Positions 25,872 to 30,863 of a DNA stretch of 64,000 nucleotides are shown one piece after another. The position numbers and the translations under genes were made by a program. This stretch comes from Nitrosopumilus sp. (GTDB taxonomy: Archaea; Thermoproteota; Nitrososphaeria; Nitrososphaerales; Nitrosopumilaceae). Numbering within the stretch: position 1 is the first letter of the stretch; each line of letters opens with the position of its first letter. The stretch is taken from assembly GCA_965238275.1 (NCBI GenBank), contig OZ250186.1, positions 1,696,001-1,760,000 of the forward strand, in the 5' to 3' direction. The notes under the pieces are model-generated. The model saw only the letters and a list, made by a program, of their open reading frames with translations. It was not told the DNA's origin and made no database searches.

Positions 25872-28064
25872 ATGGTCAAGTTCAAGTCCACCGGGGAAGT
25901 TCTTAAGATCATCAAAAACAAGGACCAGATCAGGAACTTTGGGGTAATAGCCCACGTGGATCACGGCAAGACCACCATGAGCGACAGCCTTTTGGCATAC
26001 TCTGGGATAATAGCGCCCTCTGCTGCCGGAAAGGCGCTTGCGATGGACTTTGACAAGGAGGAGCAGCAGAGGGGAATCACGATATACCAGGCAAACGTCA
26101 CGCTGCACTTTTCCCAGGAGGACAGGGAATACGTGATTAACATGGTAGACACCCCCGGGCACGTGGACTTTAGCGGAAGGGTCATTCGGAGCCTCAGGGC
26201 AATCGACGGGGCAGTCGTGGTGTGCGACGCAGTCGAGGGGATAATGACCCAGACTGAGACTGTGACCAGGATGGCCCTTGAGGAGCGGGTCAAGCCGGTG
26301 CTCTTCATAAACAAGGTGGACCGCCTCATAAAGGAGCTCAGGCTCACCCCCGAAAAGATGCAGCAGCAGCTGGTCGATGTCGTCTCAAACTTCAACCAGC
26401 TTATCGATACATATGCAGAACCCGAGTACAGGGAGAAGTGGAAGGTCGCCATCCAGGACGCCAGCGTGACGTTTGGCTCTGCCAAGGACAGGTGGGCCAT
26501 CAACATTGATCTTATGAAGAAGCGGGGGATCACCTTCAAGGATGTCATAGACGCCTACGAGAACGGGACGGTCCCAGACCTGGTGGAGAAGGCCCCCCTG
26601 GCTGATGCCGTACTGGGAATGGTCGTAAAGCACCACCCCGCGCCGCACGAGGCGGTAAAGTACAGGATTCCCCAGATATGGAAGGGGGATCTCGAGTCGG
26701 ACATCGGAAAGGCGCTTCTTTCATGCAGCGACGAGGGGCCGACCATAATGATGATAGTCAACATGGTGCTGGACCCTGCCGCGGGTCCTGTCGCAATCGG
26801 CAGGCTGTTTTCTGGCACCATCCGGGACGGCCAGACGATCAACATAATCGACGAGAAGCGCGAGGGGCGAATCCAGTCTGTAAACTTTTTCATGGGAAAC
26901 CAGAGGGAGCAGGTGGGCCAGCTTGGCGCCGGAAACATCCCCGCGCTGCTCGGGCTGACCGAAGCCCGGGCCGGCAACACGATATCTTCAGTCAAGGGCA
27001 TTCCGATGTTCGAGGGGGTAAAGTACGTCTCAGAACCAGTAGTCCAGGTGGCAGTCGAGCCAAAACACCCCAAGGACCTGCCCAAGCTGGTGGAGGTGCT
27101 GCGGCAGCTGACCATAGAGGATCCCAACCTGGTGGTAAAGATAGATGAGGAGAGCGGCGAAACCATAGTGGCAGGCATGGGGGTGCTGCACCTGGACGTG
27201 GCGACGCACCGGATCCAGGACGCCAAGGTGCCCATAGTCACCTCGGAGCCGCTGATCAACTACAGGGAGACTGTCAAGGCCTCATGCGAGCCTGTAATGG
27301 CAAAGTCGCCCAACAGGCACAACAAGATCTTCATGAGAGTCGAGCCCCTCGAGCCTGAGATTGCACACATGCTCAGGACCGGCGAGATAAGCGATCTCAA
27401 GGACAAGCAGATAGTCTCCGACCTGCTAAAGGGAGCCGGATGGGACACTGACACCATCAAGAGGGTGATGAGGTTTGACTCTCGCGGCAACGTCCTGATA
27501 AACGGGACCAAGGGTGTCCAGTTCGTCCAGGAATCCACCGACTCTATAAACTCCGGGTTTGACGACGTAATGAAGGAGGGCCCCCTGTGCAGGGAGCAGA
27601 TGAGGGGCTGCAAGTTCATCTTTACCCATTTCGTTCCGCACGAGGACACCGCCCACAGGGGACTCTCCCAGCTGGGCCCTGCATCCCGCAGGGCGTGCAT
27701 GGGGGCGCTGCTCACCGCGGGAACCGCCGTGCTCGAGCCGATGCTGGCAGTGGAGGTGCGCGTCCCGACTGACCTGGTCGGAAACGTGGCGACTGTCCTG
27801 TCAGGCAAGCGCGGCAAGGTTCTTGACATGGTCCAAAAGGGCGCATCAAGCATCATTACAGGCGAGATTCCTGCATCCGAAACCTTTACGCTATCTGACG
27901 AGATGAGGGGCCAGACTGCGGGGCGCGCGACATGGAACACGTCGTTCAAGGCGTGGACTGAGATTCCAAAGTCCCTGCTGCAGACGGCAATCTCTGACAT
28001 CAGAAAGCGCAAGGGGCTTGCGCCCAGCCCGCCTGTAGTAGGCGAGTTCATCGACAGGGAATAA
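25872..28064 (+). CDS. fusA: Translation elongation factor aEF-2
   Basis: 'AHVDHGKTT', 'RGITI', 'DTPGHVDF', 'NKVD', diphthamide loop 'HEDTAHRG'. Confidence 0.99.
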   Translation: MVKFKSTGEVLKIIKNKDQIRNFGVIAHVDHGKTTMSDSLLAYSGIIAPSAAGKALAMDFDKEEQQRGITIYQANVTLHFSQEDREYVINMVDTPGHVDFSGRVIRSLRAIDGAVVVCDAVEGIMTQTETVTRMALEERVKPVLFINKVDRLIKELRLTPEKMQQQLVDVVSNFNQLIDTYAEPEYREKWKVAIQDASVTFGSAKDRWAINIDLMKKRGITFKDVIDAYENGTVPDLVEKAPLADAVLGMVVKHHPAPHEAVKYRIPQIWKGDLESDIGKALLSCSDEGPTIMMIVNMVLDPAAGPVAIGRLFSGTIRDGQTINIIDEKREGRIQSVNFFMGNQREQVGQLGAGNIPALLGLTEARAGNTISSVKGIPMFEGVKYVSEPVVQVAVEPKHPKDLPKLVEVLRQLTIEDPNLVVKIDEESGETIVAGMGVLHLDVATHRIQDAKVPIVTSEPLINYRETVKASCEPVMAKSPNRHNKIFMRVEPLEPEIAHMLRTGEISDLKDKQIVSDLLKGAGWDTDTIKRVMRFDSRGNVLINGTKGVQFVQESTDSINSGFDDVMKEGPLCREQMRGCKFIFTHFVPHEDTAHRGLSQLGPASRRACMGALLTAGTAVLEPMLAVEVRVPTDLVGNVATVLSGKRGKVLDMVQKGASSIITGEIPASETFTLSDEMRGQTAGRATWNTSFKAWTEIPKSLLQTAISDIRKRKGLAPSPPVVGEFIDRE

Positions 28065-28104
28065 TAGGGTCCGCCTCCCCACCCCTCCCGAATACACCAC
28101 CACT

Positions 28105-28458
28105 CTAGTTTGCCTTCTGCCGTGCCAAAAGAAGATTGACCTTCTTTAAGACATCATCAACAATGTGACTGGCGGCATGGCACCTGAAACTGGCATTTCG
28201 TGCTCGCCAGTCTAGGTTCTTTATATGATCTGCCAGAACCACACCAGATACAGGACTTGAGAGTGGAAGATGTACCTCAAACGGATATCCCTTGATCTGG
28301 GACGTAATGGGACAAAAGAGTGCCAAACCGGTCCACCTTGTTATAAGAACACGGACTCAAGACCAAGGCTGGGCGACGACCCGCCTGCTCGTGTCCAGAC
28401 TGAGGCGTAAAATCCAGCCAGACAATATCTCCTCTTTCGGGGAGATATTCCGGTTCTA
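28105..28458 (-). pseudogene. mazF: MazF/PemK toxin, decapitated by an insertion and frameshifted
   Basis: 'EYLPERGDIVWLDFTPQSGHEQAGRRPALVLSP', then one extra base near 28334, then 'TGLALFCPITSQIKGYPFEV...VLADHIKNLDWRAR'. Confidence 0.9.
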
Positions 28459-30124
28459 TAGTGAAAAGCGAAAGTTCGTGCAATTTTTTGAGATCCTTTT
28501 TAAGAAAATAAATCCCAACTACAGGTATGATTGTCAGTAAAATCATCAAGATAACACAATCTCGGGAACTGTCACGCAAGATCGTGAAATGCTCCCGGGA
28601 AACAGACATCATTTACGACATGACAATCATGATGAAACTTGCACACTCACGGATCACACAGTTTGATGTCAACAACCTGATAACAGGATGGCGCAGGGAA
28701 TTCGGCCTGACCAACAGCGTCCGCATGCATGAGGCCGCCTCAAAACAGGCTTTCCAGGCGGCAGTCAAATTCCGCAAGGCAAACCGGCTCAAGCACAACA
28801 AGCGCATCTGGCGCAAGAAGCAGATCAAGCTGGGGAAAAAGAAGACGTACAAGCACAATCGGTGGACCGAGCCGTCCAGCCTGATGAGGCGCGGCAGGAA
28901 AACAACCAGGCTGCGCTCGCTGAATTCACGCGCAAAGCCAAAACTGCGAGACAGTGGAGCGGTATTTCTGCCCGGACTCGGGGAAGCAAGGCCACGCACG
29001 AAGGTTCCAGAAGGCAGGCTCGTGTCATTCCAGATGATTGACACCACAGGCAAGGTCACGCGTAAGACCAAGGATGGTGATCGCGAATTCAAACTGCATT
29101 TGCAGATAGAAGTCCCAGACCCCGAACCCGCGACAGGCGGTGGCGGCGGCGGATGCAAGGCAGGGCTGGATCTTGGAGTCAGGCACCTTGCGGCAGTCGC
29201 AGACGAGCATGGGAACGAAAAACTGCACAATGTCCCCGGAGGCTGCAAGAGGCATGACGGCGACAGGATTGATCAGCTGAAATCACTTAGATCAAGATGC
29301 CATGCAGGCTCCAGAAGATGGAAAGAGATCGGCCGCAGGATAACGCATGAATTGAAAAAGATATCAAACAGGCAAAAACACAACGAGGCCGACATTGCCA
29401 GGCGGATAACAAAAGGACTGTCCGTATTGTTCTTGGAAGATCTGGATTTGACCAGGATGAGGCGATCCTGCGGGGCGGCTTCAAAGACGGGGTTGAACCG
29501 CGAGATGGCCTATTCCAGAATGGGCGAGTTCAGGATCCAGCTTGAATGGCAGATGAAAAAGAAAGGCGGAATTTCAAGACGCGTGGAACACGCACATACA
29601 AGCCAGAGGTGCGCTGCCTGCGGGGTAGTGGACAAGAAATCCAGGAACGGCGAATCATTTGTCTGCGTCTCATGCGGATGGTGCCACCATGCCGACAAGA
29701 ACGCGGCAAAAAACATTTTGGATAATGACTGTCTCCATACGGAGGAGACTGGCGGCCAAGCCCACGGGAATCGTGGAGGCACCATTGCGAGGTGTCGAGG
29801 TCGTCACAAGGCGCGAGGATCACGGATCGGATGGTTCTGGAATTCTCGCTCATAAATTTTTGATTTTCTGGTGCGATGCAGCTCGAGATGTGTGTTTATG
29901 TTCTTCATTGGAATCCAAATCAAACTGGGCATCGTCTGCATCTTGGTGCGTTATATACCAGCAATGAAAAACATATTCGCTCATAAATTTTTGATGCAAC
30001 AGCCGTCTCAGGTCGGCTTGGATCCGACAACGACGACAATATTGGAAGGTCTGACAGAGCGCCGGAAAGAGCATCAGGACACGCTACAGAGAGATCTGTT
30101 TGCACGAACTTTCGCTCGCCGCTA
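28459..30124 (+). mobile_element. Non-autonomous TIR-bounded element carrying only tnpB (IS630/Tc1-mariner-like ends, TA duplication)
   Basis: TIRs TAGTGAAAAGCGAAAGTTCGTGCAA / TAGCGGCGAGCGAAAGTTCGTGCAA (21/25, 17-bp perfect core); TA at 28457-58 and 30125-26; removing it restores the mazE stop and mazF start. Confidence 0.88.
28527..29855 (+). CDS. tnpB: TnpB/Cas12f-like RNA-guided endonuclease
   Basis: RuvC-I 'GLDLGV', RuvC-II 'LFLEDL', zinc ribbon 'TSQRCAACG...CVSCG', RuvC-III 'ADKNAAKNI'. Confidence 0.92.
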   Translation: MIVSKIIKITQSRELSRKIVKCSRETDIIYDMTIMMKLAHSRITQFDVNNLITGWRREFGLTNSVRMHEAASKQAFQAAVKFRKANRLKHNKRIWRKKQIKLGKKKTYKHNRWTEPSSLMRRGRKTTRLRSLNSRAKPKLRDSGAVFLPGLGEARPRTKVPEGRLVSFQMIDTTGKVTRKTKDGDREFKLHLQIEVPDPEPATGGGGGGCKAGLDLGVRHLAAVADEHGNEKLHNVPGGCKRHDGDRIDQLKSLRSRCHAGSRRWKEIGRRITHELKKISNRQKHNEADIARRITKGLSVLFLEDLDLTRMRRSCGAASKTGLNREMAYSRMGEFRIQLEWQMKKKGGISRRVEHAHTSQRCAACGVVDKKSRNGESFVCVSCGWCHHADKNAAKNILDNDCLHTEETGGQAHGNRGGTIARCRGRHKARGSRIGWFWNSRS

Positions 30125-30273
30125 TACCATTCTTCGTTGCCTTGTGATGGGCCGGTATCCTGTTCAGGGTGGATGTTGTCAGGTTCTATACTGGTCAAAA
30201 TGTCTGCCAAGTCATTTATTTTCTGGTGCGATGCAGCTCGAGATGTGTGTTTATGTTCTTCATTGGAATCCAA
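30125..30273 (-). pseudogene. mazE: MazE-like antitoxin C-terminal region; stop codon split by the insertion
   Basis: 'DLADILTSIEPDNIHPEQDTGPSQGNEEW' matches the MazE C-terminal pattern LxxLLxxITPxNxHxExDxGxxxGxExW. No AbrB N-domain visible. Confidence 0.75.
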
Positions 30274-30632
30274 ATCAAACTGGGCATCGTCTGCATCTGC
30301 TGGTGCGTTATATCTTTTACATGTCAGATCTTACATATATGCATAATTCGTGTTGGTATGGCGTTGTCCATACCTTCGTCAGAAAACCACTGATAATCTT
30401 AAAGATCATTAGCATCATGCATCGGAAAGGTTTTGGATCACCGATTCTGCCCTGCCCGGAATCCCTGCGGAGGCCGTGGCTTGCATGACGGTTCCCCCCT
30501 TGCCAGAAGCTCCAGTGTGTACCCCGGCAGGAGTTCACCTTCCATGGTACATGCAGGGAGGGTAGGGGGCCGCAGCAGCGCCATACCACGCACCCCCAGG
30601 TTATTTATTCAGGTACATCCGGTTACTACACC

Positions 30633-30863
30633 ATGGGACTGCTGTACACAAAGTTTTACATGGATTTTGAGAGCGAGGAATGGGACCAAATCTCCAACAA
30701 CCCCCTAATATTCCAGACAGTCAAGGACGGCGTGTCCCTTGAGATCGAGGACACGTCCCACAAGTCATACCGGCTCAACTTCAAAAAGGGCGGGCGGCTC
30801 AATATGTTTCGGGTCACCGGCAAGTTCAGGCTTACGTGGGATGACGGGGATGTCCTGGAATGA
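30633..30863 (+). CDS. Conserved hypothetical protein
   Basis: Clean 76-aa ORF overlapping the next gene (ATGA). Confidence 0.75.
   Translation: MGLLYTKFYMDFESEEWDQISNNPLIFQTVKDGVSLEIEDTSHKSYRLNFKKGGRLNMFRVTGKFRLTWDDGDVLE

Follow-up and report, generated by a model that had tools for sequence, protein, structure and literature searches.

The window analysed here, a stretch of 64,000 nucleotides (nt) of contig OZ250186.1 from the single-contig, 2.2 Mb genome of Nitrosopumilus sp., contains a non-autonomous IS630-type element (28459-30124, + strand) with tnpB as its only long open reading frame (ORF) and a TA on either side (28457-28458 and 30125-30126). Positions 30009-30126 probably represent the 3' half of the scaffold of a TnpB guide RNA (omega-RNA). 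A sequence-only reading had placed such a scaffold across the right terminal inverted repeat (TIR), which stands for the element family, whose copies share a covarying structure, and only in part for the copy in the window, which is damaged. The conserved structure does not start at 29996, as that reading had it, but near 29732, inside the 3' end of tnpB, and reaches into the right inverted repeat, stopping 9 nt short of the element end.

The structure was obtained from an alignment of 35 distinct 3' ends (304 columns), 20 from the Nitrosopumilus genome itself ("own" copies in the following), one from genome G280 and 14 from genome G076, both of the same genus, whose TnpB relatives have homologous 3' ends and share 74% (G280) and 49-57% (G076, several subfamilies) protein identity; neither the window copy nor a copy bearing a 44-nt duplication was included. 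RNAalifold predicts 54 pairs for the 35 rows, 19 of them with changes on both sides. The refined model comprises 53 pairs in ten helices over about 240 nt, and here also 19 pairs change on both sides. Paired cells amount to 97.2% of 1854, against 90.1% in shuffled alignments. When the 3' partners are slid by one to three columns, which retains the relatedness of the rows, pairing collapses to 34.5-48.7%. Two-sided changes occur in 149 cells (shuffled mean 42.6), and the covariation score of 0.310 (0.174 when shuffled) is attained by none of 500 shuffles. Most two-sided changes per helix are seen in helix 4 (5/6 pairs) and helix 7 (7/9 pairs), the latter being rewritten in sequence among subfamilies with pairing kept in 96.5% of its cells. 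By our own sum 212 of the 1854 cells (11%) are G-U pairs; read from the opposite strand they would become A-C mismatches, which assigns the structure to the tnpB-sense RNA. The homologues thus share a conserved structure, a point on which the sequence-only reading had staked its proposal. A covariance model built from the 3'-terminal 163 positions gives 176-185 bits for 19 own-genome copies and 91-169 bits for G076 copies.

Mapped from the alignment columns onto the + strand of the window, the 5' part of the scaffold occupies 29732-29843 and the 3' part 30009-30126. Helix 1 (29732-29736/29741-29745) is followed by helix 2 (29750-29756/29800-29806), enclosing helices 3 (29762-29764/29774-29776) and 4 (29778-29783/29791-29796). 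Helices 5 (29810-29813/30060-30063) and 6 (29817-29821/30048-30052) enclose helix 7, of which the window copy retains the 5' strand (29828-29837) and has lost the 3' strand, and helix 8 (30012-30016/30024-30028). Helix 9 (30069-30072/30114-30117) encloses helix 10 (30086-30090/30095-30099), and the scaffold ends in an unpaired tail (30118-30126). Helix 8 is the GTCGG..CCGAC hairpin already pointed out from the sequence; its second pair is U-A in 17 rows, C-G in 11, U-G in six and unpaired in one (n = 35). The competing hairpin AGCCG..CGGCT (30001-30018) has to be abandoned, its 5' arm (30001-30008) lying in an insert unique to this copy. Helix 10, noted earlier as ACAGA-GAGA-TCTGT with a GNRA tetraloop, is present in this form in all 21 own-genome and G280 rows; the 14 G076 rows have in its place a CCGG..CYGG stem that is shifted by one register and capped by a non-GNRA loop of 5 nt. 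Through helix 9, in which GAGC (30069-30072) pairs with GCTC (30114-30117), the outer part of the right inverted repeat is tied into the scaffold; the second pair of this helix is A-U in 27 rows, U-G in four, G-U in three and C-G in one. For UGGCGGC, the 7 nt that directly precede the 3' TA, folding of single sequences prefers a different partner; helix 2 was retained instead, because the alternative shows no two-sided change and leaves 23 of 245 cells unpaired. CAAG (columns 74-77) and CUUG (columns 185-188) may form a pseudoknot, with 96.4% of cells paired and no covariation.

The element is bounded by inverted repeats of 27 nt, TA included (28457-28483 and 30100-30126, + strand), with 85% complementarity. 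Their four mismatches lie at positions 6, 8, 9 and 10 counted from the outer end and the right end is richer in G+C than the left, as the sequence-only reading had described. Own-genome ends agreeing with one or the other terminal sequence at 0-2 mismatches show the same left/right contrast, and the pairing of bases 30114-30117 in helix 9 may be the reason why the outer bases differ between left and right in every copy. BLAST places 22 left and 24 right ends in the genome, which contains about 24 copies; intact copies are 1492-1534 nt long. Right ends terminate in ..CGCTATA in 23 of 24 cases and in ..CTATG in one, and the ends read TA-TAG..CTA-TA throughout, except for one TG and one TG-type variant. 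Empty sites were compared inside the own genome, at paralogous positions: for the copy at 883619-891004 two such sites have identical flanks 2 nt apart (AA there), which fits a 2-bp TA duplication with one TA derived from the host. An orthologous empty site was sought with an intact copy and its 600-nt flanks among 71 genomes of the genus, where matches were restricted to the own genome and G076 and to the element interior. A search of genome contigs for related loci returned a single one, probably from the genome represented by G280.

Terminal inverted repeats and a TA target-site duplication are both features of IS630/Tc1-mariner elements. Features of IS200/IS605 are missing: the ends are inverted, the TA is duplicated, and the 99.9%-complete genome has no match to the Y1 (HUH) transposase TnpA (PF01797), for which a control search matched in 6 of 14 known genomes. 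Matches to the IS630-family transposase DDE_3 exceed the cut-off 32 times in the genome. The element has no DDE_3 transposase of its own, and is therefore non-autonomous. Four IS630-family copies, G000:C1:1873253-1874349 and three at about 70% identity (1281862-1282965, 2123842-2124945 and 276860-277962), possess very similar inverted ends (TATA[G/C]TGACG..CAAAAGT..), close to those of the TnpB element and, for the first 19-20 nt, matching the ends of the TnpB elements in G076; one of the four has an open frame of 358 amino acids (aa). By its sequence features the element is thus to be classed not with IS200/IS605 but as a non-autonomous IS630-type element carrying tnpB. Since its ends resemble those of genomic IS630 elements and the genome lacks a Y1 transposase, mobilisation in trans is suggested, probably by IS630-family DDE transposases whose genes lie elsewhere in the genome.

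A C directly precedes the 5' TA in 33 of 33 copies, comprising all 18 own copies with an intact left end and all 15 of G076 and G280. These tallies of flank bases are hand counts and omit four own copies with replaced or truncated left ends, one of which shows the C if shifted by one base. Of 44 right ends only 18 have the mirror base, a G following the 3' TA, and the eight ends of the four IS630 copies have the C in 4/8. A motif on one side only is what is expected of a target-adjacent motif (TAM), and the invariant C before the TA is likely to be one. The earlier proposal of a TAM in the left flank is thereby borne out as a sequence signature, which the protein would recognise in the proposed mechanism. 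The candidate TAM in the window is the left-flank TTC with the 5' TA (28454-28458, + strand), the predicted motif being N-N-C-T-A; at position -3, 15 of 18 own copies have T, whereas 13 of the 15 others have A or G. Beyond the right end the flanks differ at all 24 own and all 20 G076 right ends. The right flank is preceded by ..N-C-T-A in an empty site and by ..C-T-A-T-A in a filled one, so that the element would not target itself.

According to the mechanism we propose, a tnpB-sense RNA would begin inside the tnpB 3' end (about 29732), fold into the ten helices and end its scaffold in the right inverted repeat, and the guide would come from read-through transcription beyond the 3' TA into the adjacent DNA. 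In the window this guide would read CCATTCTTCG.. from 30127, with 30127-30142 (+ strand, the 3' end of mazE on the other strand) as the predicted extent under an assumed length of 16 nt. An IS630-family DDE transposase from elsewhere in the genome would excise or move the element and leave a donor site composed of left flank, C, TA and right flank. RNA-loaded TnpB would then recognise C-TA, with the preceding base or two, as TAM and the right flank as target, and its cut, followed by repair from the sister copy, would restore the element.

Five RNA runs contain part of the stretch, of which four, from two studies, were examined. The canonical form of the 3' end, with 11 nt in place of the insert described below and without an extra G, is present in contigs of all four runs (depth 3-153). 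Contigs cross the right end in three runs of both studies: one (X2 record 8) runs in one piece from 28626 across the right end and 230 nt into another flank, and another (X1 record 7) begins in the inverted repeat and continues past the right end. A contig of canonical form at depth 3 (X5 record 12) ends 16 nt past the right end, at 30142, in a flank like that of the window, and gives a weak hint of the guide length. In the contigs of X1-X3 the unique flanks of the window copy (28091-28455 and 30128-30515) are almost uncovered, which is uninformative either way.

Several observations weigh against a guide-RNA scaffold. The 35 rows stem from only three related genomes and are hence not independent, and the covariance model was matched in only 2 of 151 genomes sampled from the family. 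With Rfam 15, the only hit in window 28000-30700 is the irrelevant SECIS_1 (E = 0.6, other strand), and four loci with intact copies give nothing at E <= 1. Folding of single sequences is weak: an intact copy reaches z = -1.83, and 29856-30145 of the window folds no better than shuffled sequence (z = +0.92; 166 of 200 shuffles equal or better). Support for the structure comes from the comparison of copies and not from the window sequence alone. The window copy itself scores 98 bits with the covariance model, against 176-185 bits for intact copies, and lacks helix 7. The scaffold lies largely or wholly within the tnpB frame, and its indels are multiples of three, so that part of the conservation is due to protein coding or to slippage of a GAC repeat. 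The data from the RNA runs are contigs, which show the presence of the sequence and not its ends or strand, and which could derive from carried-over DNA. Finally, a cut-and-paste DDE transposase already breaks the donor site, which makes the benefit of homing less obvious (PMC13565253, in its section 6.2).

The overlap with tnpB bears on two further explanations. Among the 22 paired own-genome copies, 14 have a tnpB frame (474-493 aa) that reaches the final base of the element without a stop, so that the description of this stretch as non-coding applies to the window copy, where it is a consequence of the 1-nt insertion near 29790 and of the 165-nt insert, and not to the family. In open-frame copies such as L002:1572-3019 the terminal TA needs the first flank base for a stop codon; this base is A or G in 14 of 24 right ends, and otherwise translation of tnpB would enter host DNA. 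The open frame, together with the RNA-library contig that carries tnpB through the right end in one piece, would suit a 3' element of the mRNA, i.e. a genuine RNA structure that stabilises or regulates the tnpB message instead of serving as guide scaffold. Such an element is improbable, as known TnpB guide RNAs share this position, size and strand, and the one-sided, invariant C of the left flank would be left unexplained. In G076, moreover, the frame stops about 30 nt before the element end and the structure is still kept.

A second explanation dispenses with a functional RNA and attributes the conservation to the coding of a C-terminal tail of TnpB, combined with an inverted repeat bound by the transposase. 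It draws on the open frame, the indels in multiples of three and residues shared by the tails across genomes (GRLEPDN.., R.DR.P.RA). Against it stand the 149 cells that remain paired despite two-sided change and helix 7, a near-perfect hairpin even where it is rewritten between subfamilies; the covariation exceeds that of all 500 shuffles, with the slid controls at 35-49% pairing. The tail after RuvC-III is not known to require conservation of this kind, and we regard this explanation as quite improbable. That the helices are single-stranded DNA hairpins for transposition is highly improbable: TnpB genes usually reside in IS200/IS605 elements, whose ends act as DNA hairpins, but here the genome is without a Y1 transposase, the ends are inverted with a TA duplication, the 11% of G-U cells fit an RNA and one strand only, and the structure has no counterpart at the left end.

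With the guide-RNA scaffold as the preferred interpretation for the family, the window copy stands apart by two lesions. An additional G near 29789-29790 shifts the reading frame of the tnpB tail, and the 3' strand of helix 7, normally formed by the canonical 11 nt GAACAATTCGA, is replaced by 165 nt (29844-30008, + strand) unique to this copy, in which tnpB ends. The insert consists of two partial left ends of an IS630-family insertion sequence (IS) around a 97-99% identical copy of window 30215-30313, i.e. DNA about 200 nt downstream of the element. The contributing IS is unrelated to the element, about 1260 nt long and present in at least 11 copies. The junctions of the insert sit in short A/T-rich look-alike stretches, and the insert may be a product of repair or template switching. 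In the covariance-model alignment of the window copy helix 7 is skipped and the 5' strands of helices 5 and 6 are misplaced. Because the 3' strand of helix 7 is lost and the tnpB tail is frameshifted, the RNA of this copy is probably impaired; that it still gives a working guide RNA is rather unlikely, though it would be no great surprise.

The tnpB gene (28527-29855, + strand) encodes 442 aa in the window copy, compared with about 482 aa when intact. The ORF of the window copy retains the RuvC-I/II/III D-E-D triad and the zinc ribbon that characterise TnpB, and matches OrfB_IS605 (PF01385, 3.6e-11) and Cas12f1-like_TNB (PF07282, 2.2e-16) in Pfam. Among solved structures, the TnpB chains 8bf8/8exa and 8h1j are hit with E-values of about 5e-9. 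The two best structure-chain matches are an AI-designed RNA-guided nuclease and a chain named 'Transposase', and their printed alignments cover the GLDLG, LEDL, CxxC..CxxC and HADKNAAKNI motifs of the tnpB product. By sequence, the product is closest to prokaryotic TnpB and Cas12f. The protein search returned 24 clusters of 46-95% identity, beyond which none exceeds 41% (over a fifth of the query), and judged from these sequences the TnpB clade is narrow.

Other copies display further rearrangements. Copy L013 (G000:C1:196566-198110) contains a 44-nt tandem duplication over scaffold helices 3 and 4, and its tnpB frame is shortened to 453 aa. Copy L022 (G000:C1:883500-891100) is a landing pad with an interruption of about 5.9 kb, which carries IS5/Harbinger-like (DDE_Tnp_4), IS66, IS6/rve-like and IS630 (DDE_3) transposase genes. 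Among four more distant TnpB loci, clear inverted ends occur in one and in none of the other three. This locus (L028:1005-2434, from G207, another genus of the family) encodes a TnpB of 33% identity between 29-nt inverted repeats of 90% complementarity. TnpB elements with inverted ends may accordingly be more widespread in this archaeal family.

The element is inserted between a mazF-like (PemK) gene (28105-28456, - strand), frameshifted near 28300-28326, with two ORFs in different frames matching PemK profile positions 1-35 and 38-108, and the C-terminal remnant of an upstream antitoxin-like ORF (30127-30273, - strand), which ends in ..NEEW and has no Pfam match. With one TA retained the junction reads ..GAATGG-TA-GAACCGG.. 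and provides a TAG stop for the upstream (mazE) ORF, overlapping the ATG of mazF. A site with the single TA thus regains the mazE stop and the mazF start; the pair itself is decayed. The toxin-antitoxin remains cover 28105-28612 and 30127-30273 (both - strand), and only about 66 codons of the antitoxin-like ORF are left before a stop. In a relative of about 91% identity, represented by an RNA-library contig (X1 record 1), 28063 is joined to 30597 with 62 other letters between them; this contig is without the island of mazEF plus TnpB (window 28064-30596), which is thus variable among strains.

TnpBs linked to IS630-type elements have been described as a large branch, 'DDE-6', with symmetrical ends (Altae-Tran et al. 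2023, PNAS, PMC10691335, here and below as far as the excerpted text goes). The same text reports solo copies of TnpB whose inverted DDE-type ends resemble the ends of elements with a transposase, which suggests that they are mobilised in trans, and notes that the 3' end of tnpB lies no more than 250 bp from that of the transposon, a distance taken as space for a guide RNA. The present element shares with them a TnpB between symmetrical IS630-type inverted ends, and on the strength of these excerpts it is an archaeal member of the kind represented by the IS630-linked TnpBs already in print. The DDE-6 loci possess a DDE transposase and a helix-turn-helix protein beside tnpB, several of them in giant-virus genomes (PMC10691335); here tnpB is alone, and the host is an ammonia-oxidising archaeon. 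A covariation-backed RNA structure and a flank motif, both worked out here, do not appear for the DDE-6 branch in the excerpts of PMC10691335.

TnpB of the ISDra2 type belongs to IS200/IS605 elements; its omega-RNA, or right-end element RNA (reRNA), lies over the tnpB 3' end and takes its guide from the flank, with a TAM in the left flank. The Nitrosopumilus element resembles this system (8exa, 8h1j) in its RuvC core, in an RNA structure that covers the 3' end of tnpB and extends to the right end, and, as proposed, in a guide from the flank, a left-flank TAM and restoration of the element. Unlike there, the genome has no Y1 TnpA, the ends are inverted with a TA duplication instead of subterminal hairpins without duplication, the scaffold of about 240 nt has no Rfam match, and protein similarity is low (E about 5e-9). 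With Fanzor1, found in eukaryotic Tc1/mariner and other DDE transposons, it has in common that a TnpB relative resides in a TA-duplicating DDE-type element (PMC13565253, section 6.2). The Fanzor geometry given there assigns the 5' duplication to the TAM and the 3' duplication to the scaffold, as is also proposed here. In contrast to Fanzor1 the protein is archaeal, compact (about 480 aa) and nearest to prokaryotic TnpB and Cas12f, and the 3' end of its scaffold pairs with an upstream strand (helix 9), whereas the 3' end of Fanzor1 forms no pseudoknot according to that section of PMC13565253.

A guide RNA at the tnpB 3' end is expected and hence an ordinary finding, and this copy is damaged. 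The family is useful in that a mesophilic archaeon supplies a TnpB of compact size (about 480 aa) for which covariation defines the scaffold and a TAM (N-N-C-T-A) is predicted, and which resides in a TA-duplicating IS630-type element with candidate partner transposases in the same genome. It would provide a tractable prokaryotic model for TnpB/Fanzor nucleases that work with DDE transposons, a cooperation treated as an open question in section 6.2 of PMC13565253. As the invariant C is confined to the left side (33/33, against 18/44 for the mirror base), it is conceivable, on a tentative view that we hold to be less than probable, that the TAM of TnpB and not the DDE transposase decides where these IS630-type elements persist, and that the element is a working prokaryotic counterpart of Fanzor1 in Tc1/mariner, with the 5' TA in the TAM and the 3' TA in the scaffold. 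If this were true, homing by guide RNA would pay off even for cut-and-paste DDE elements.

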